From a virus: a stretch of 64,000 bases of DNA. The stretch is taken from positions 18,180 to 82,179 of IMG/VR virus record IMGVR_UViG_3300021964_007119. One strand, written 5' to 3'. Made by a program: the position numbers and the translations under genes. Below, piece after piece: positions 1,903-40,711 of this stretch. The first letter of the stretch is position 1, and each line of letters begins with the position of its first letter. Under the pieces are notes generated by a model. The model did no database searches, was not told the origin of the DNA, and saw nothing but the letters and a program-made list of their open reading frames with translations.

Positions 1903-3684
1903 TTATTTTTTTCTTAAACTATGTTTCCATTTTCCTCTCCACTCTCGTCTAGCCCATCTTTCAGCTGCTATTTCAAATGGGTTGTTGTCGTGGAAATCTT
2001 TACCCTTATCTTCTTGTTCTTGTCCAGCTTGTGTATACATTCTTACAAACTTTTTACGACCATATTTTTTACTATCCATAGCGTGATAAATTTCGTGTAA
2101 CAAAGTTATCATAAAATCTTGAACACTTTTATAAAAAGGTCTTAACTTTATAATATCTCTGTCAAAATCATAATCACCTTTTGTTGCTCGTGGACTAAAT
2201 TCTAATTTTGAATTAACTCTGTATTTATTCATTATTTTTTTAGCTATTTGTTGAAAGTCTATTCTTTCTAATAATAAAGTTGTTCCGTCTTTTAATGTAT
2301 ATGTTTCTAACATTTTTTGTTTTCTTACCCAAGACTTACCTCTCGGATTTTTTATTGGTCTTTTGATAAATTTAGATATTCCTTTTTTAACCAACATATT
2401 AAATCGTTTTTGTGCTTGTTTTGGTGAAAGGTCTTTGTTGTTATCAATGATTATAAAGTTATTACCACCAAACAATCCTTGAAATCCACCAATATTTTTT
2501 ATAACTTCTCTGTGTGAATCAACAACTATTTTTTCCGGTAGAACTCTGTCACGATTTTTATTTCTTTTAAGTGCTACTTCTAATGTAGTGTTGACAAATA
2601 CCATATAACAATCATATCCTTTTTCCTCTAATTCTTTTTTCTCTTTTGATATTTTTGCATAATCATCACCGGTTCCGTCAATAATCATACCGAGTCTTCC
2701 GTTTTGATATAATTTTTTTCTCACACCGGTTAATTCTTTAGCATAACTTCTCAATCCACTTGCGTCTGGTCCATCACCTGTTAGATTGTCAAATACTTCG
2801 TCTGGTAATGCGTCTAAGTTAGTTCCGAACCCGTATTTTTTTAATAAGAACTTTAACTCTTTATCTGTGTTGACCATTTTCATACCGGTCTGAGATACAT
2901 TAACTCTTTCTGGTATTCCAAATAAACCTTTTGCTACCCAAGTTTTACCACTTCCAGGCCCACCTGCTAAGAAAACTGCTTTTAAAATACCTGGGTCATT
3001 GATACCTTCTTTTAAAATCATTGTTTCACCATTTTTGGTAAGTATGTTTTCCATATGTTTATAATATTCTTTTTCAAATCCCAACTCAACAAAAGCTGTA
3101 TAACCTTTTGGCCCTTGTCTACCTGATGCTTGTGAAGCTTCTTTTAATGGTAATCTAAATGTTACAACTTTTCTACCATTGATTGTTGGCATTCCGTGTT
3201 CATCTTTACCAATAGATTTGACTACGGTTTTTTTATTTTTAAATCTACCAGTTAAAATAGTATCTCCAATCTTTACTGGTATATTTACATCTTCTCTAAT
3301 ACTACGATTTAATTTTCCGTGAATTCTTTTCATTTTTTTTCTTTGTGCTAAACTTGTAGGTATCCAATCTGGTCCAAAAGTATAATCCTTGTTTTCTTTT
3401 GTTTTCTTTTTCATCTTGTTGATATAAGAACGATAAACCGCGGCTTGAGATGATTTACCCATTTCTTTTGCTCGTTGTTCCATTGCTACAGCGGCTTGAA
3501 TTTTGTGTGCGTGAGATTTACCACTACCCTTGATTTTACTTACTGAAGATTTAGCATCTTTAACAGTTGCAAACTTTAAACCTTTGATTGTTCCTTTTGG
3601 ATTTTCATCTGTGTATAAATCTGAATGAGATGAAGAACCTCTATGTTGTCCTTTTTTTCTTGGAACTCTTGGTGTTTCGTTCAT
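1903..3684 (-). CDS. Multidomain putative head protein: basic N-terminal module, small beta module, P-loop kinase (zeta-toxin/AAA_33-like), HExxH metallopeptidase-like domain
   Basis: KAVFLAGGPGSGKT and IIDGTG; LLHEIYH...NPFEIAA; [I/L]xE sites at domain junctions. Confidence 0.65.
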   Translation of the reverse strand: MNETPRVPRKKGQHRGSSSHSDLYTDENPKGTIKGLKFATVKDAKSSVSKIKGSGKSHAHKIQAAVAMEQRAKEMGKSSQAAVYRSYINKMKKKTKENKDYTFGPDWIPTSLAQRKKMKRIHGKLNRSIREDVNIPVKIGDTILTGRFKNKKTVVKSIGKDEHGMPTINGRKVVTFRLPLKEASQASGRQGPKGYTAFVELGFEKEYYKHMENILTKNGETMILKEGINDPGILKAVFLAGGPGSGKTWVAKGLFGIPERVNVSQTGMKMVNTDKELKFLLKKYGFGTNLDALPDEVFDNLTGDGPDASGLRSYAKELTGVRKKLYQNGRLGMIIDGTGDDYAKISKEKKELEEKGYDCYMVFVNTTLEVALKRNKNRDRVLPEKIVVDSHREVIKNIGGFQGLFGGNNFIIIDNNKDLSPKQAQKRFNMLVKKGISKFIKRPIKNPRGKSWVRKQKMLETYTLKDGTTLLLERIDFQQIAKKIMNKYRVNSKLEFSPRATKGDYDFDRDIIKLRPFYKSVQDFMITLLHEIYHAMDSKKYGRKKFVRMYTQAGQEQEDKGKDFHDNNPFEIAAERWARREWRGKWKHSLRKK

Positions 3685-18036: not shown

Positions 18037-18426
18037 TTATTGTTTAGATTCTATATCTTTTCTAATTTTATCAGATGTTTCTTGCAAATCTTTTGTATCG
18101 TGTTCTAATATAGTGTTCATAATATCTTGTTTTTCTATTTCAGATAAACCAAATTCACTTTCTGCTTCACCCTTACTTTCTGCAGAAATAATTTTCTGAA
18201 CAATGTTAGCTAACTTTACTAATAACTCATCATTACGAACATTGATTTCTAAATACTCTTTAATCATTGGAACTATCTGAACAGCTGTATCTCCGTCTTT
18301 AATCATAGAAGTAATGTTCTTAGTTAAGACATCTAATTGTTTTCTGTTGTAGTTTTGATTTTCGTAAATATCTTGAAACAACGACGATAATGACTTTCCT
18401 TTAAATATTTCATAATCGTTTGACAT
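18037..18426 (-). CDS. Helical hypothetical protein
   Basis: 129-aa ORF preceded by the late-type motif. Confidence 0.5.
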   Translation of the reverse strand: MSNDYEIFKGKSLSSLFQDIYENQNYNRKQLDVLTKNITSMIKDGDTAVQIVPMIKEYLEINVRNDELLVKLANIVQKIISAESKGEAESEFGLSEIEKQDIMNTILEHDTKDLQETSDKIRKDIESKQ

Positions 18427-19826: not shown

Positions 19827-20638
19827 TTTTTATCTCCAAATAATTCATCAAATAAGTCATTAGATATTTTACCAGGTTTATCTTGTAGTTCTACTGGTTT
19901 ATCATTACTACCTAAAACTTCTTTGATGTTTTTTATTTTTTCAAATGTTTCTGTTTCTTCTTTTTCAATTGATTCTTTTGTTAAACGACCCTCTATCTGA
20001 GCGGCCATCATATCAGCTTGATGAAGAATATATTGTATTGTAGAACGAAGTTGAAACTCTGATTTATACGCTACTAAATAACTTTTATTTGCTTCTTCAT
20101 ACATTCCGTCTGTTAATCTGATTCCGATAAATTCTTTTTTAGTAATTGGTATATTATAATGTTGTAGTAAAAAGAAAGCTCTATCTGTTACTGACATATA
20201 TTCACACTTTGGATTGTGTGTAAATATTTCCCCCATATTCTTTCTTCTCCACTCGTTGTCTTGTGGAATATAATAATCATTTTCTAAATCACCAACTTTA
20301 CCTAAGTCGTGGTGTAAGGCCGAAAATACTAATTCTTCATCTGTAAAATCTATTTTACAATTACTTTGTTCCCACAACTCTTTTACTTTTAATGAAAAAT
20401 CTACTACTCTTAATATATGGTCTACATAACCACCTAACATTGCGTTATGATAGTGTTCTTTAGCACTTGCGGGAGCCATCATAAATCTATCTTTCATATC
20501 TTCATACATCTTTAATACTTTTTCTTTCCTATCACCAGTAATGTGAAGTTGGATTGTATTAATTAATGAATCATAATTCTGTTGTATTTGTTCTGCTGTA
20601 AGTTCTCTCATTTTACCACCATTGGTTTTCTTTATCAT
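19823..20638 (-). CDS. HD-domain phosphohydrolase
   Basis: HYHNA...GGYVDHIL...ALHHDLGK...HQAD. Confidence 0.82.
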   Translation of the reverse strand: MIKKTNGGKMRELTAEQIQQNYDSLINTIQLHITGDRKEKVLKMYEDMKDRFMMAPASAKEHYHNAMLGGYVDHILRVVDFSLKVKELWEQSNCKIDFTDEELVFSALHHDLGKVGDLENDYYIPQDNEWRRKNMGEIFTHNPKCEYMSVTDRAFFLLQHYNIPITKKEFIGIRLTDGMYEEANKSYLVAYKSEFQLRSTIQYILHQADMMAAQIEGRLTKESIEKEETETFEKIKNIKEVLGSNDKPVELQDKPGKISNDLFDELFGDKK

Positions 20639-22144: not shown

Positions 22145-22182
22145 AAAATACAAAATATTTTTTCCAATGTCAAGAACTTTTT
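22145..22182 (-). promoter_or_regulatory. sigma70-type early promoter
   Basis: AAAAAAGTTC-TTGACA-17 bp-TATTTT. Confidence 0.65.
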
Positions 22183-22750: not shown

Positions 22751-22900
22751 TTAATATATGTCAATTTCGTCATCAGTTTCAAATTCATCATATTCTGACT
22801 CACCTTTGATAACTCTTATTGCTTCTTCTACTAATGACCAATCTTCTCTTTCAATCGCATCATAAAGTAGTTCTAATACTTGTTGTTTGTCAATTTCCAT
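22751..22900 (-). CDS. Small acidic hypothetical protein (49 aa)
   Basis: Manual translation MEIDKQQVLELLYDAIEREDWSLVEE... Confidence 0.5.
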   Translation of the reverse strand: MEIDKQQVLELLYDAIEREDWSLVEEAIRVIKGESEYDEFETDDEIDIY

Positions 22901-23483
22901 TTATAACCCAACCTTTCTCCAAATAAGGAATAGCTTTTTTATACTTCATTGTTAAAGTTTCTTTGTCTTTCGTAATTGTAACTTTTTCGTTTCTACCAAT
23001 CTTTAATTCGGTTCTACGAAAACTTTCTCTTTTAAATTCTCTATCGTAAATAGTCTTACCATTTAAGTGGTCTATCTCGTGTTGAACACAAACTGATTCT
23101 AATATTAGTAAATCATTATCAACTTGATTATCTTTTTCTGGACCAAATATCATTGTTCCCTCAACATTGTCTGCTTCAACTTCAATTCTCTCGTATCGTT
23201 TTGTCGTAACCATTTTGTCCGGTATAGACAAACAACCTTCTTTATAAATTATTTCTTTTTGTTTTTTAACAATAACGGGATTCAATAAGAAAAAAGGATT
23301 CGTAACATCAACAACACAAACTGATTTATCTTCTCCGATTTGATTTGCTGATAATCCTAATCCACCCTCTTGTTTTAAGGTTTTAAACATCTCAACCGCT
23401 AATTTTTGAGCAGTCTTTAAGTCTGTTTTCTTTGTTGGTGTAGTTAATATATCATTTGGATATACTACAATTTCTTTTATCAT
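22890..23483 (-). CDS. def: Peptide deformylase
   Basis: GLGLSANQIG, EGCLS and QHEIDHLNG motifs. Confidence 0.95.
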   Translation of the reverse strand: MIKEIVVYPNDILTTPTKKTDLKTAQKLAVEMFKTLKQEGGLGLSANQIGEDKSVCVVDVTNPFFLLNPVIVKKQKEIIYKEGCLSIPDKMVTTKRYERIEVEADNVEGTMIFGPEKDNQVDNDLLILESVCVQHEIDHLNGKTIYDREFKRESFRRTELKIGRNEKVTITKDKETLTMKYKKAIPYLEKGWVINGN

Positions 23484-26090: not shown

Positions 26091-26990
26091 TCAACTACCA
26101 ATTTTTTTCACCACATAATTTACTATTTTTTCCCCAACATTTACTTTCGTAAACTTTTCCATACCTTCAAACCCTGGTGCAGAATTTACTTCACAAATTG
26201 TATAAGTTCCTTCATTGAATAATAAGTCTACTCCTGCAATATCTAAGTTTAATAATCTAGAACACTCACCTGCTATCCACTCGATATCTTCATCAACTTG
26301 ATAAGGAATCGCTTCTCCACCACGAGTTAAGTTTGCTCTAAAATCTCCGTCAACTGATTGTCTCATCATACAACCTACGACTTTTCCGTTTACTACTAAT
26401 ACTCTTAAATCTTTTCCGTAAGAATCCTGAATAAACTCTTGTAAAATAATATTATAACTTGGTTTGGTTAGTTCTGCCATTTTCATCAGTTGTCTAAATT
26501 GTTTTCTGTCCTCAACTAGAAATACTCCACTACCATATGAACCACTTAAAGTTTTTACTATCATTGGATATTTTAAATTCTTTTCAACTAGTTCCAGATT
26601 AATAGGGTGTTTTACCAACATAGTTTTTGGAACTGGTAAATTTGATTGTCCAAGAATTTGTTGTGAATATAATTTATCTTTAACATTATCTATAGCATCA
26701 CTTCCGTTAATCATCACAACACCTAGTCTTTCCATATGTCTAATAATGGCTTTAATAAAGTAAGTTGTTCCAGAACCTGTTCTTGGAAATACAAAGTCAG
26801 GTAATTTTCTTGGTTTACCATCAACGATAATAGATTTTCTATCATCTCTGTCTACAAAGATATCTACATCTTGTGGATTAACTACACGAATATCTACTCC
26901 TTGTTTTTCAAATTCATCTACAAGTCTTTTGACTTCGTGGTTCTCACCCAATTCTTTTTTATGTATTATCCAACCTGTTAAATTCGCCAT
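26091..26990 (-). CDS. rimK: RimK-family ATP-grasp ligase
   Basis: PRTGSG, DKL, VPKT, GSYGSGV, QEFI, DLRV, FRANL..GG, GVDLL, EVNSAPGF. Confidence 0.85.
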   Translation of the reverse strand: MANLTGWIIHKKELGENHEVKRLVDEFEKQGVDIRVVNPQDVDIFVDRDDRKSIIVDGKPRKLPDFVFPRTGSGTTYFIKAIIRHMERLGVVMINGSDAIDNVKDKLYSQQILGQSNLPVPKTMLVKHPINLELVEKNLKYPMIVKTLSGSYGSGVFLVEDRKQFRQLMKMAELTKPSYNIILQEFIQDSYGKDLRVLVVNGKVVGCMMRQSVDGDFRANLTRGGEAIPYQVDEDIEWIAGECSRLLNLDIAGVDLLFNEGTYTICEVNSAPGFEGMEKFTKVNVGEKIVNYVVKKIGS

Positions 26991-33608: not shown

Positions 33609-33875
33609 TTATACTTTCCAAAAATCTTCTTCTTTATATGTGTTGGTAAATGAACCTTCTCCGTGTACTTCTTCAGCACCTTCGGTTGAACTATAATAGT
33701 TAACAACAGCTCCTTTAATATCAACAACCTTACCTTCTTCTTTTGGATTGAAGTTTCTATTACTTGGTGGAATCTTTATGTGGATATGTTCCACTTGTCC
33801 TACTCTTCCAGTATCTGAACACTTCTTTCGTAGTCCTTCTAAATTAATTCCTTGATTTCTTCTTCTTCTTGGCAT
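33609..33875 (-). CDS. Hypothetical protein
   Basis: 88-aa ORF, SD GAGGAG. Confidence 0.5.
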   Translation of the reverse strand: MPRRRRNQGINLEGLRKKCSDTGRVGQVEHIHIKIPPSNRNFNPKEEGKVVDIKGAVVNYYSSTEGAEEVHGEGSFTNTYKEEDFWKV

Positions 33876-34341
33876 TTTTGCTCCTCGTTTTTAGTTTTAC
33901 TTCTGAAGTTGTCTTTTCTCTATGACACTTCTTACATAGTGTTTGTAAATTTTCTAATTTATAATAATTCCAATCTAAATCTTTTTCTTTTACACCCTTT
34001 TGTTCTACCAATGGTTTGATGTGGTCTGCTTCCCAATGTAAATCAAAGTATCCACATTTTTTACAAATACCTTCATCACGATTCCATAGTTGAGCTCGTT
34101 GTTCTCCACTATGATAGATTAATAAGTATTCAGTTGCACAATCTTCGTGCCAACTTTTACGGGTGTTAATCGTATCTTCTTTCTCATTCAATATAACATT
34201 ACCACACCACCTACAATTACCTTTGGTCTTGGTATAGTAATGTTTTGGTTTTGGTGGTTTACGGAAATCTCCGTTCCACTTCTCTTTTTTCTTTTTTCCA
34301 AATGTCTTCTCGTGTCGTGAACTCCACCTACTTAACGGCAC
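33844..34341 (-). CDS. HNH endonuclease
   Basis: CKKC...ADHIKPL...NLQTLCKKCHREKT. Confidence 0.85.
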   Translation of the reverse strand: MPLSRWSSRHEKTFGKKKKEKWNGDFRKPPKPKHYYTKTKGNCRWCGNVILNEKEDTINTRKSWHEDCATEYLLIYHSGEQRAQLWNRDEGICKKCGYFDLHWEADHIKPLVEQKGVKEKDLDWNYYKLENLQTLCKKCHREKTTSEVKLKTRSKNAKKKKKSRN

Positions 34342-35836: not shown

Positions 35837-35992
35837 AGTAGGAGCTTCTTTACCTTTATACTTACCCGTGATATACCAAGCCTCGTGGATTTACGATATT
35901 AACACCACGAGAACTTGACGAACCTATTTGTTTATAATGTTTTCTTAGAACATTTATGTAAATCACTTATCCTTTTGTTAATAAAATTTTTG

Positions 35993-36189
35993 AGGGTGTT
36001 GTAGGATTCGAACCTACACGCTCCAATACTAACTCGTTACTTAGGTGAATATCACTATGGGTTCTCACACCCTACTTATCTAGATTCAGTATCACCGACC
36101 TTCGTCTTATTCTCGTCAGTCCCCTATTGGACTCGCACCGATTTTCATAACTCGTGTTCTTGACGACAAAACCAATCGTCATAACACCC
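35993..36189 (-). ncRNA. tRNA-like RNA (197 nt) with a large structured insert
   Basis: Perfect 7-bp acceptor GGGTGTT/AACACCC, canonical T arm GTAGG-TTCGAAT-CCTAC, 6-bp D-like stem TGACGA/TCGTCA, about 140 nt in place of the anticodon and variable arms; own promoter. Confidence 0.75.
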
Positions 36190-36207
36190 AATTTTCAAAT
36201 ACATCTT

Positions 36208-36246
36208 AACTTACTACAATTACCCGTAAAAGTCAAGAGCTTTTTT
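36208..36246 (-). promoter_or_regulatory. sigma70-type promoter for the tRNA-like RNA
   Basis: AAAAAAGCTC-TTGACT-17 bp-TAAGTT, 18 nt upstream of the acceptor stem. Confidence 0.7.
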
Positions 36247-36250
36247 TAAA

Positions 36251-36694
36251 TTATTTCGGATAGATAGCAAAGGTATCAGCATACTCAGCCAGACAATGCC
36301 CTTGAGCTCTCTCGTATCCGTATTGTTCTTTACTACAACCTCTATACTTAATTCTATAATTCCCCGTTTTCATCATATTCCTAATCGTAGGATTATACCT
36401 AACTCTCATAGGAATACCTTTGTACAACGCTTGTTCAAAATAACCAGCTTCATATTGTTCCAACCTAATTGCTGGTTGATTCTGATTTAATCTATACAAC
36501 TCCATAGGATTATGAGCATATCTATAACTCGTTATCTCGTGAGTTCCGTTCTCAACATACTCTCCTTTATCATTATAATAACCATAAAAATTTTGAATAT
36601 ATCGTGTACATAGTGTATCTTCATAATTCCTCATAGGAATACCAAAAGTATCAGTTTGAATTTCCATATTTTCCTCGTTGTTTTGTTCTATCAT
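36251..36694 (-). CDS. Hypothetical early protein (Tyr-rich)
   Basis: 147-aa ORF directly after an early promoter. Confidence 0.55.
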   Translation of the reverse strand: MIEQNNEENMEIQTDTFGIPMRNYEDTLCTRYIQNFYGYYNDKGEYVENGTHEITSYRYAHNPMELYRLNQNQPAIRLEQYEAGYFEQALYKGIPMRVRYNPTIRNMMKTGNYRIKYRGCSKEQYGYERAQGHCLAEYADTFAIYPK

Positions 36695-39932: not shown

Positions 39933-40071
39933 AACACACTTTTTTGTGTATTTTTAAATCTTCTCTATCTTCTAATTCTGAATCTATTGTGTCGTAGTAG
40001 TCTTCGCTTTCTCTAATTAATTTTGTAAATGTCTCTCCGCCGTTCCATATTCCTTTCTCGGAATCACTCAT
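39856..40071 (-). CDS. Hypothetical protein
   Basis: 71-aa ORF. Confidence 0.4.
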   Translation of the reverse strand: MSDSEKGIWNGGETFTKLIRESEDYYDTIDSELEDREDLKIHKKVCYDDGVWSTKQKDDNGRINRTTEKRD

Positions 40072-40711
40072 TATCGTTGTCCTTTCCTTTATCTTCCCAA
40101 GTTTTCATTTTTTTAATAGTCCAACCCAAATTATCGGGACTTTTTGGGGTTTCCATAATCTTTTTTTCTTTCGTGTTTAATATGAAAAAACAATTATAAC
40201 ACAATGTTCTTAAATTACTTAAATCTCTGTTTGACTTATCTTTGTCAATATAATCTAAGATTAACGGCGATTGTGAGTCTGATTTTCTAAATTCTGAATA
40301 TCCACAATTGGAACATTCTTGAATTAACCAACCCACTTTGATTAATCTATTTAATAATTTGTGGTCAGGATAGTTAGGGTGATTACCACTTAATATACTG
40401 GATAACCAGCCCTCGGTATTAAACCTATCCCCACCTTTGTTAACACCAACTCCTGCGGCATTCTTATTTTGTTCAAATAAGTCATACATTTTCGCATACT
40501 TCTTAAATGTATTATAGGATACTCCTAAAAACTTTGAGGCGGCTCGGATAGACCTCGTGTTTTGAATAGCCCACTCAATTTTAGATTTTGGAATTGGTTT
40601 ACTTCTAAAAGGATTTTTCTTATGTCTTTGTGGTTGAACTAATCCTCGTCCAAAAGCGTTTTCAAGTTCTTCCAAACTCTCTTGATGTTCTTTTTTTACA
40701 TCTTCACTCAT
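40064..40711 (-). CDS. HTH plus degenerate HNH-like zinc-binding protein
   Basis: SIRAASKFLGVSYNTFKKY HTH; CSNC...LILDYIDKDKSN...NLRTLCYNC with the HNH His replaced. Confidence 0.65.
   Translation of the reverse strand: MSEDVKKEHQESLEELENAFGRGLVQPQRHKKNPFRSKPIPKSKIEWAIQNTRSIRAASKFLGVSYNTFKKYAKMYDLFEQNKNAAGVGVNKGGDRFNTEGWLSSILSGNHPNYPDHKLLNRLIKVGWLIQECSNCGYSEFRKSDSQSPLILDYIDKDKSNRDLSNLRTLCYNCFFILNTKEKKIMETPKSPDNLGWTIKKMKTWEDKGKDNDNE

Follow-up and report, generated by a model that had tools for sequence, protein, structure and literature searches.

The 64,000-nt stretch of viral DNA analysed here (the window; positions 18,180 to 82,179 of IMG/VR record IMGVR_UViG_3300021964_007119) carries on its minus strand, at 35993..36189, a real, conserved and structured RNA gene, which is composed of a tRNA frame and of an insert of no described family. 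This RNA of 197 nt displays the acceptor stem, the D arm and the T arm of a tRNA, and 143 nt (p30-172) occupy the place of its anticodon and variable arms. Its shape, its conservation among metagenomic orthologues, the covariation of its helices and the conservation pattern of its promoter are established here, and by a slim balance of probability we consider it to be a stand-alone gene for a natural, non-decoding, tRNA-scaffolded RNA whose insert is the effector. The features of the gene are listed below; RNA positions are numbered as p = 36190 minus the window coordinate, and distinct rows are those of the alignment of orthologues described further on.

36208..36236, minus strand: promoter, with the -35 element TTGACT (36236-36231), a 17-nt spacer and the -10 element TAAGTT (36213-36208)
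36190..36207, minus strand: stretch of 18 nt from the -10 element to G1, AAGATGTATTTGAAAATT, which holds the predicted short 5' leader and has U at -1
35993..36189, minus strand: whole RNA (p1-197), with G1 at 36189 and discriminator U197 at 35993, as read from the sequence
36183..36189, minus strand: 5' strand of the acceptor stem, GGGTGTT (p1-7), 7 pairs, invariant in 14/14 distinct rows with letters there
36161..36181, minus strand: D arm TGACGA-TTGGTTTTG-TCGTCA (p9-29), a 6-bp stem with GG in the loop
36148..36154, minus strand: 5' strand of helix Ha (p36-42), which closes the insert and replaces the anticodon stem
36118..36133, minus strand: hairpin Hb, AGUCC-AAUAGG-GGACU (p57-72), 5 pairs kept in 16/16 distinct rows
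36097..36117, minus strand: purine-rich strand of 21 nt (p73-93), predicted to be single-stranded; invariant, with free evidence at p79-83 only
36044..36096, minus strand: three-way-junction domain (p94-146), closed by helix Hc (GGUGA/UCACC) and containing hairpin He (p99-117), hairpin Hd (p118-131) and the 10-nt strand AUAGUGAUAU
36033..36039, minus strand: 3' strand of helix Ha (p151-157), pairing with p36-42
36018..36032, minus strand: linker of 15 nt from Ha to the T arm (p158-172), of which p170-172 are hypervariable (CGU, UGC, GCC, CUU, -GC)
36001..36017, minus strand: T arm GTAGG-TTCGAAT-CCTAC (p173-189), with the loop UUCGAAU and a closing pair of the G53:C61 type
35994..36000, minus strand: 3' strand of the acceptor stem, AACACCC (p190-196), pairing with p1-7

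The acceptor stem, the T arm, the D-like stem, the U discriminator followed by CA, the insert pairings and the TTGACT-17-TAAGTT promoter had all been described in the original prediction, and all are present where it had placed them. Among the orthologues the D stem is invariant, the D loop varies in sequence and in length (8-10 nt) with its GG always kept, and the UUC of the T loop is kept as well. The pair G3:C70 and the discriminator U73, which the original prediction had raised as arguments against a transfer-messenger RNA (tmRNA), are invariant in 23/23 sequences that reach the 5' end (14/14 distinct rows), so that these arguments hold. The CA that follows the discriminator (35992-35991) is likewise invariant, and CCA is not encoded; a CA(A) trailer is also found after four of the six phage tRNAs, none of which (0/6) has an encoded CCA. 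The phage tRNA-Cys (32765-32837, minus strand) has a T arm (GTAGG-TTCGATT-CCTAC) nearly the same as that of the RNA, shares its U discriminator, and represents the best non-self match in the contig of the covariance model R3 described below (22.6 bits); the frame may therefore derive from a tRNA-Cys-like gene. When the sequence is taken singly, its fold is unexceptional (z = -1.59; 14/200 shuffles fold as well), and a script searching for such frames found that two of 12 T-arm-like sites have, by chance, a perfect 7-bp acceptor at 150-240 nt. A single sequence thus proves little, and the proof comes from 25 orthologues.

These orthologues were retrieved with one gapped pattern taken from the insert, which yielded 75 metagenome stretches, and then with a single-sequence covariance model. 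Twenty-five of the 75 stretches were matched as full-length or end-cut orthologues (covariance-model scores of 155-273 bits), and the remaining 50 are chance matches, to which R3 gave no match (0/50). The 25 orthologues are grouped in two clades, of 12 and 13 members, and comprise 16 distinct sequences. Their identity to the window is 89-97% for the RNA, 47-95% for the upstream open reading frame (ORF), and 81-91% for the downstream ORF where it can be aligned; these ranges exclude L160, which is identical to the window, L161, whose downstream ORF shows 37% identity, and the end-cut rows L169 and L175.

Other searches delimit the distribution of this RNA. No match was found by blastn in distant mode with 35900-36300 against 50,697 phage records; an exact 24-mer and an exact 26-mer from the RNA gave 0 and 0 matches in the IMG/VR viral contigs, and an exact 21-mer gave 0 in the contigs of species-representative genomes. 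The downstream ORF of 110 aa has no relative in the IMG/VR viral contigs. Fifty whole records from IMG/VR that belong to related phages were scanned with model R1, which returned only two matches of 16-17 bits, both in one record; ARAGORN calls nothing at either of them, and the one of 157 nt is not tRNA-like. Model R3 gave only matches of 26-87 nt and 16-26 bits on Microcystis phage Mel-JY01, the uncultured phage LR756508 and Flavobacterium phage immuto, and the frame script found no large-insert frame in Mel-JY01 and immuto. An index of sequencing runs returned 24 runs with near-identical DNA, 18 of which hold at least half of the sampled words; these runs carry mostly estuary or marine labels, three are labelled as soil, and six may be the source sample. 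So far, the RNA appears to be confined to one clade of estuarine and marine myoviruses.

The structure of the RNA was described by an eight-helix covariance model (R3), with which the 25 sequences and the window were realigned (alignment A3; 26 rows, 16 distinct). The 43 pairs of this model form a standard pair in 96.8% of the cells, compared with 40-53% when the 3' partners are slid; six pairs are changed on both sides, compared with 0-1 in six slid controls, and the covariation score of 0.114 is reached by 0/500 shuffles (0.046 +/- 0.007). All of the variable helix positions (15/15) covary, keep a G-U pair or replace a mismatch by a pair in most rows, with the exception of three mismatched cells (p121:128 in two rows and p102:114 in one). 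On an earlier alignment, which was not fitted to the full model, RNAalifold recovered independently the acceptor, D, Hb, Hc, Hd and T helices, with four pairs changed on both sides. These comparisons support structural selection on the insert.

The changes are distributed over most of the helices. In Ha, G39:C154 is replaced by C:G in clade 2, in which the tandem G-A/A-G of clade 1 is also converted into Watson-Crick pairs. One pair of Hb is C:G in 14 rows and U:G in two, and the Hb loop is replaced in L169. Helix Hc shows U96:A144 changed to A:U in 6/16 distinct rows, and in He (p99-102/114-117) the pair U102:A114 is changed to C:G in six rows, to U:G in one and to a mismatch in one. For Hd (p118-121/128-131), G119:C130 is changed to A:U in one row, the double change G119A and C130U being also present in one contig of an RNA-library run (X19), and U121:A128 is changed to G:U in six rows and to a mismatch in two. 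The T stem shows A175:U187 changed to G:C in 4/16 distinct rows, which belong to both clades. Most of the remaining changes fall in loops. Where the hairpin loops of the insert differ among the orthologues they do so in length and in sequence, and the stems hold; positions p170-172 seem to behave like an unpaired variable loop.

With regard to the pairings listed for the insert in the original prediction, GGTGA/TCACC and GGGT/ACCC display compensatory changes and AGTCC/GGACT is kept, and the T stem GTAGG/CCTAC proposed with them shows a compensatory change as well. The pairing TCCAATA/TATTGGA was left unsupported: it competes with Hb, and L169 changes five of its bases without compensation. 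Two helices absent from that list, p99-102/114-117 and p36-42/151-157, show compensatory changes. Three further candidates were rejected: a minimum-free-energy hairpin p70-75/p91-96, which is contradicted by U96A in clade 2; a pairing of p170-172 with p54-56, the former being hypervariable and the latter never changing; and a recurring core TACCCG/TTACGGGTA, which is not enriched (12 matches versus 8.46 +/- 2.61 expected, with 12/100 shuffles equal).

The promoter was compared over 17 distinct upstream sequences. The -35 element TTGACT and the A-rich block that precedes it are invariant, the -10 element is TAAGTT in 11 sequences and TATATT in six (TAnnTT being kept in 17/17), and the spacer varies freely in sequence and has a length of 17 nt, or of 18 nt in one of the 17 sequences. 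The 18-nt stretch before G1 is largely conserved, with a 9-nt duplication in one sequence. This pattern of conservation supports a working promoter, which ends 18 nt before G1 as had been proposed; action early in infection, which had been proposed with it, is suggested only by the sigma-70-like type of this promoter. The motif TTGACW-N15-19-TAnnnT is found 29 times in the window, compared with 18.9 +/- 3.8 expected (0/100 shuffles reach 29), and one copy is located 12 nt before the phage tRNA-Lys, in the same layout as at the RNA gene. On the minus strand, sigma-70-like promoters (TTGACW-N17-TAtatT) were noted that precede genes as well as tRNA-Lys, at 22173, 22893, 24669, 28614, 30595, 35635, 36236, 36728 and 38290, and we take this promoter family to suggest a host with promoters of the E. 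coli type rather than of the Bacteroidota type. With its promoter, its CA trailer and the absence of a terminator, the RNA gene is laid out like a phage tRNA gene that heads an early unit.

Between the RNA and the next ORF there is another promoter-like site, TTTACA-17-CATTAT (35962-35934). It is overlapped by a small hairpin, AUGUU-CUAAGAA-AACAU (35925-35955, minus strand), which lies ~40-65 nt after the 3' end of the RNA and of which both strands change together in some orthologues (GGCU...AGUC, CGAC...GUUCG); this hairpin may act as a weak terminator or may control the next ORF. Among the contigs of RNA-library runs, one (X20) ends at 35991 and another bridges 35931-36017, so that no 3' end can be read from the former. 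The only joint found in these contigs connects 36421 to 36494 in one contig (X24), at depth 2, and is located inside the upstream ORF.

By the tests run, the RNA is not an intron-bearing tRNA, a tmRNA, a Y RNA or a known ribozyme, and no described RNA of the same kind was found in the accessible portions of the literature. The tRNA family RF00005 gave no match at its gathering score, ARAGORN with default settings made no call, with introns allowed or not, and Rfam at E<=10 returned only noise on the region (tRNA-Sec at 16.5 bits versus a cut-off of 47, a small nucleolar RNA, and a plastid untranslated region). These checks, which had been suggested with the original prediction, revealed no known family, and its proposal of an undescribed tRNA-mimicking RNA gene was borne out: neither Rfam nor the callers of tRNA and tmRNA claim the RNA, and its insert is conserved and covaries. 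As for membership in the tRNAs themselves, the 7-bp acceptor, the UUCRA T loop and the GG of the D arm are present, and the 5-bp anticodon stem with its 7-nt loop is absent; by eye, no flank pair forms a 5-bp anticodon stem with a U33-type loop.

A tmRNA was rejected on the basis of G3:C70 instead of G3:U70, of U73 and of the full D stem; ARAGORN makes no tmRNA call even at the 80% threshold, and none of the tmRNA families of Rfam matches at E<=10. The only candidate frame for a tag crosses the single-stranded region and is interrupted by indels of 1 nt that distinguish the variants (G103 is missing in 13/25, comprising all of clade 2, and an A is inserted in 2/25), which would alter both the tag peptide and its stop. 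On 35900-36300, Rfam shows no match at E<=10 to a group I intron or to a ribozyme family. When introns were allowed at the 80% threshold, ARAGORN reported a tRNA-Asn(AUU) with a 106-nt intron over the exact span of the RNA; this model was rejected, as it has 3/5 anticodon-stem pairs and uses bases that the covariation assigns to Hc. No contig in four RNA-library runs skips part of the element, a weak observation since contigs drop rare forms. The hammerhead-like combination CUGACGAG...CGAA is present and was set aside, with no family at E<=10, a helix II of a single pair, and C3/U4 falling within the conserved hairpin Hb. There are four ORFs of 29-39 aa that overlap with the element, and a small protein gene was rejected because D-loop indels of 1-2 nt shift the 39-aa frame on the RNA strand. 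No TROVE/Ro60 gene, as a partner of Y RNAs, was found in the 82-kb contig, a weak result for a contig that is 44% complete (the control was positive in 2/14 genomes).

We infer the transcription, processing and stability of the RNA, as well as the role of its insert as effector, from the features described above. In the proposed mechanism, the sigma-70-like, host-type promoter would start transcription ~10 nt before G1, and the stack of acceptor and T arm, together with the corner formed by the D loop and the T loop, would make the transcript resemble a pre-tRNA. The conserved tRNA part is the part that is read by RNase P, by 3' trimming, by the CCA-adding enzyme and by EF-Tu. The leader would be cut by the RNase P of the host, and the 3' end would be finished by host trimming and by the host CCA-adding enzyme; no member of the CCA-adding enzyme family PF01743 was found in the phage's own contig, which is 44% complete. 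From this processed tRNA half the RNA would gain a tRNA-like stability. Helix Ha, in the place of the anticodon stem, would carry a two-part domain of 108 nt (a hairpin, the purine-rich strand and the three-way junction) as the working part, which would most likely bind a host or phage factor, and the RNA would be unable to read codons. Maturation by RNase P/Z, as put forward in the original prediction, is suggested by the shape only, and the EF-Tu or ribosome role that it also mentioned would be pure speculation.

Several points weigh against this tRNA-scaffolded effector RNA. The ends of the transcript, its processing, its CCA tail and its stability are deduced from the shape. With A at position 8, where U8 is usual, and with six pairs in the D stem, the frame is not that of a textbook tRNA, and host enzymes may fail to recognise it. 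The homologues are without exception syntenic orthologues of close kinship, whose flanks share 70-100% identity with the window, and most of the covarying changes fall on the single branch between the clades, which leaves only ~7 independent events. The retrieval pattern fixed p70-78 and p84-93, where invariance is thus no evidence, and alignment A3, including the evidence for Ha, was fitted to the proposed structure and hence favours it. No intrinsic terminator was found between the RNA and the next ORF, and the RNA may therefore form the beginning of an early transcript that extends farther, rather than a separate unit. In the four RNA-library runs, contigs are found over the element and equally over its two flanks; as such libraries can hold DNA, this even coverage does not prove transcription.

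The absence of a terminator-like site is also what would be expected of an element acting in cis, that is to say of a processing or control element of an early transcript into the downstream ORFs, in which the tRNA shape would only be a cutting signal for RNase P / RNase Z or a 5' stabiliser, and the excised RNA would be without a job of its own. Such an element would fit with the RNA and the downstream ORFs travelling together in the orthologous loci that reach that far, and with both the RNA and the downstream block missing in 40/40 relatives that keep only the 147-aa gene. We nevertheless regard it as unlikely: a cutting signal needs the tRNA frame only, whereas here the 143-nt insert is conserved too, four of its helices showing compensatory changes, and the second promoter-like site stands between the RNA and the next ORF. 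It is quite unlikely that the RNA serves as a decoy or sponge to capture a host protein reading the upper half of tRNAs (a defence toxin that targets acceptor ends, or an enzyme that modifies or binds tRNAs), with the insert adding affinity or blocking turnover. The acceptor stem, the discriminator and the D stem never vary and the T stem covaries, as would fit a sequence-specific recognition of the acceptor end, and the RNA has small early-type ORFs and homing endonuclease genes as neighbours, within a hypervariable block of a kind in which phages often keep counter-defence genes. However, no defence or partner gene was identified, and a decoy is a special case of the general scaffold, from which nothing separates it. 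Anticodon nucleases, which the original prediction named among the decoy targets, are unlikely ones, as no insert hairpin has a conserved 7-nt anticodon-like loop.

The invariant acceptor stem and U73 bear on two further proposals. U73 is a main identity element for cysteinyl-tRNA synthetase and for bacterial glycyl-tRNA synthetase, and acceptor minihelices with U73 can be cysteinylated. We consider it improbable that the RNA is a trans-acting tRNA mimic which is aminoacylated via its acceptor and U73 (perhaps with Cys or Gly) and brought to its destination (ribosome, transferase or tRNA-sensing defence protein), where the folded insert would do something that no tRNA can. Very improbable is a charged RNA acting in or near translation, either as a tmRNA-like effector at the ribosome or as an amino-acid donor for a non-ribosomal transferase: the tmRNA topology (tRNA-like domain, closing helix and internal structured body) and the likeness to the phage tRNA-Cys would agree with it, but G3:C70 in 14/14 distinct rows and the full D stem are unlike tmRNA, neither ARAGORN nor Rfam matches one, and the tag frame is not kept. 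An interrupted tRNA gene, with a group I intron or another self-splicing or processed kind, that is spliced to a working tRNA could account for the tRNA-Asn(AUU) reported by ARAGORN and for the homing endonuclease genes nearby, yet nothing is called at the default threshold, the anticodon stem is incomplete and in conflict with Hc, no intron or ribozyme family matches, and no contig (weakly) skips the element, which makes it highly improbable. The unremarkable fold energy of the single sequence would suit a decayed tRNA gene with a meaningless insertion. This explanation is scarcely credible in view of the compensatory changes in the insert helices, of loops that vary while stems hold, of the conserved promoter, and of an RNA at least as conserved as the neighbouring protein genes; the homologue and covariation check suggested with the original prediction, by finding the insert conserved, speaks against decay.

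The window originates from an 82-kb IMG/VR virus contig with a CheckV completeness of 44% and a G+C content of ~30%. The virus is assigned to the myoviruses on the basis of a baseplate-J-like protein, and among cultured phages this protein places it closest to Microcystis phage Mel-JY01 (47% identity) and Flavobacterium phage immuto (38%). Nearly all genes of the window are located on the minus strand, and six ordinary tRNAs were called by ARAGORN and by Rfam at curated cut-offs, with a tRNA cluster 2.6 kb downstream of the RNA gene. The RNA is preceded by an ORF of 147 aa and followed by small ORFs of 62, 54 and 110 aa; no family of Pfam or PHROGs was found for the ORFs flanking it, and farther out on the upstream side there are one SWIM zinc finger above cut-off and some sub-threshold matches. 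Two HNH homing-endonuclease-like genes (33844-34341 and 40064-40711, minus strand) stand on either side of the RNA-bearing variable block.

The 147-aa ORF has 40 relatives in IMG/VR, with 66-79% identity, and synteny with them ends at the end of this gene, the whole RNA-bearing block being absent there. In these 40 relatives the RNA was found neither by blastn at E<=1e-3 nor by model R3 (0/40); at E<=50 only chance matches of 10-18 nt were obtained, and the T-loop motif is absent within 750 nt downstream of the gene (0/40). A recurring 12-mer match in six of the relative loci was rejected as unrelated, coding-looking sequence. The break in synteny and the absence of the RNA from 40/40 relatives assign it to a variable block that comprises small ORFs together with genes for HNH endonucleases. 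In relatives without the RNA (e.g. L041:4575-4605 and like loci), a strong intrinsic terminator and then a converging gene come after the 147-aa gene, which suggests that the RNA block was gained or lost as a unit at the end of the 147-aa gene.

Elsewhere on the minus strand, the window encodes auxiliary proteins that are translation-related and nucleotide-kinase-like: a RimK-like ATP-grasp protein (26091-26990), a peptide deformylase (22890-23483) and a 593-aa protein with a Zeta-toxin/AAA_33 P-loop kinase domain (1903-3684). A run of sugar-metabolism genes (42131-63400, minus strand), including a UDP-glucose dehydrogenase-like gene, a glycosyltransferase and a cytidylyltransferase fused to an HMGL-like domain, may represent a phage-encoded pathway for a glycan or a nonulosonic acid. 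The cultured relative immuto (vB_FspM_immuto_3-5A, record 20247-20332; L222:747-832) possesses, 0.6 kb before its tRNA cluster, a tRNA-like gene of 84 nt with an encoded CCA, which is not called by ARAGORN and scores 32.3 bits with the Rfam tRNA model versus a cut-off of 29; this tRNA is odd or degenerate.

The identity of the partner of this RNA could reveal a new phage action on the tRNA biology, the translation or the defence of the host, and the RNA can be compared with several systems that carry a tRNA-like module. YrlA-type Y RNAs are also non-coding RNAs with such a module. YrlA ends in a Ro-binding stem and not in an acceptor; the ends of the present RNA form an acceptor, and no Y RNA family of Rfam matches it at E<=10, for which reasons a Y RNA was rejected. 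With tmRNA (SsrA) it shares two ends that form an acceptor/T domain and a long helix leading to an internal structured body, and it differs by G3:C70, U73, a full D stem, a length of 197 nt and the lack of a conserved tag frame. If the aminoacylated mimic were true, it would be a second kind of tRNA-bodied effector RNA beside tmRNA, and would provide a first clue to the role of RNAs of the T4 RNAC type.

The engineered tRNA scaffold of Ponchon and Dardel keeps the acceptor, T and D arms and replaces the anticodon stem-loop by a helix that carries a structured RNA, its arms being chosen, according to the available part of the source, for recognition by cellular factors of E. coli (PMC3753655). 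That scaffold is man-made, whereas the present RNA is natural and conserved, and linkers of 6 nt and 15 nt flank its carrying helix. The phage would thus use a "tRNA scaffold" design that RNA engineers invented independently, and RNAs of this kind might become a supply of natural, stable RNA scaffolds.

The closest natural precedent is RNAC of phage T4. T4 has been recognised for decades as a producer of tRNA-like stable RNAs, and the biological roles of RNAC and RNAD are stated to be unknown in the available parts of the sources (PMC3014915, PMC9697503); the T4 record annotates rnaC (139 nt; species 1 RNA) and rnaD beside tRNA genes. RNAC is a small stable RNA and, like the present RNA, is encoded by a phage on the strand that bears its tRNA genes; both have a canonical T arm (CCGGG-UUCGAAU-CCCGG in RNAC), acceptor-like ends and no anticodon arm. 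Model R3 scores RNAC at 13.6 bits, which is within the range of the ordinary T4 tRNAs (8.6-17.8) and so indicates no homology beyond the tRNA frame. The acceptor of RNAC has, as annotated, two U-U mismatches, no D arm was seen in it, and it is located inside the tRNA cluster, whereas the present RNA stands 2.6 kb upstream of its cluster with its own promoter. With a complete upper half of a tRNA, a conserved promoter of its own and compensatory changes that hold the helices of its 143-nt insert, it offers a cleaner example than T4 RNAC. This RNA belongs with the poorly understood kind first seen as T4 RNAC, as a variant with an insert of no described family.

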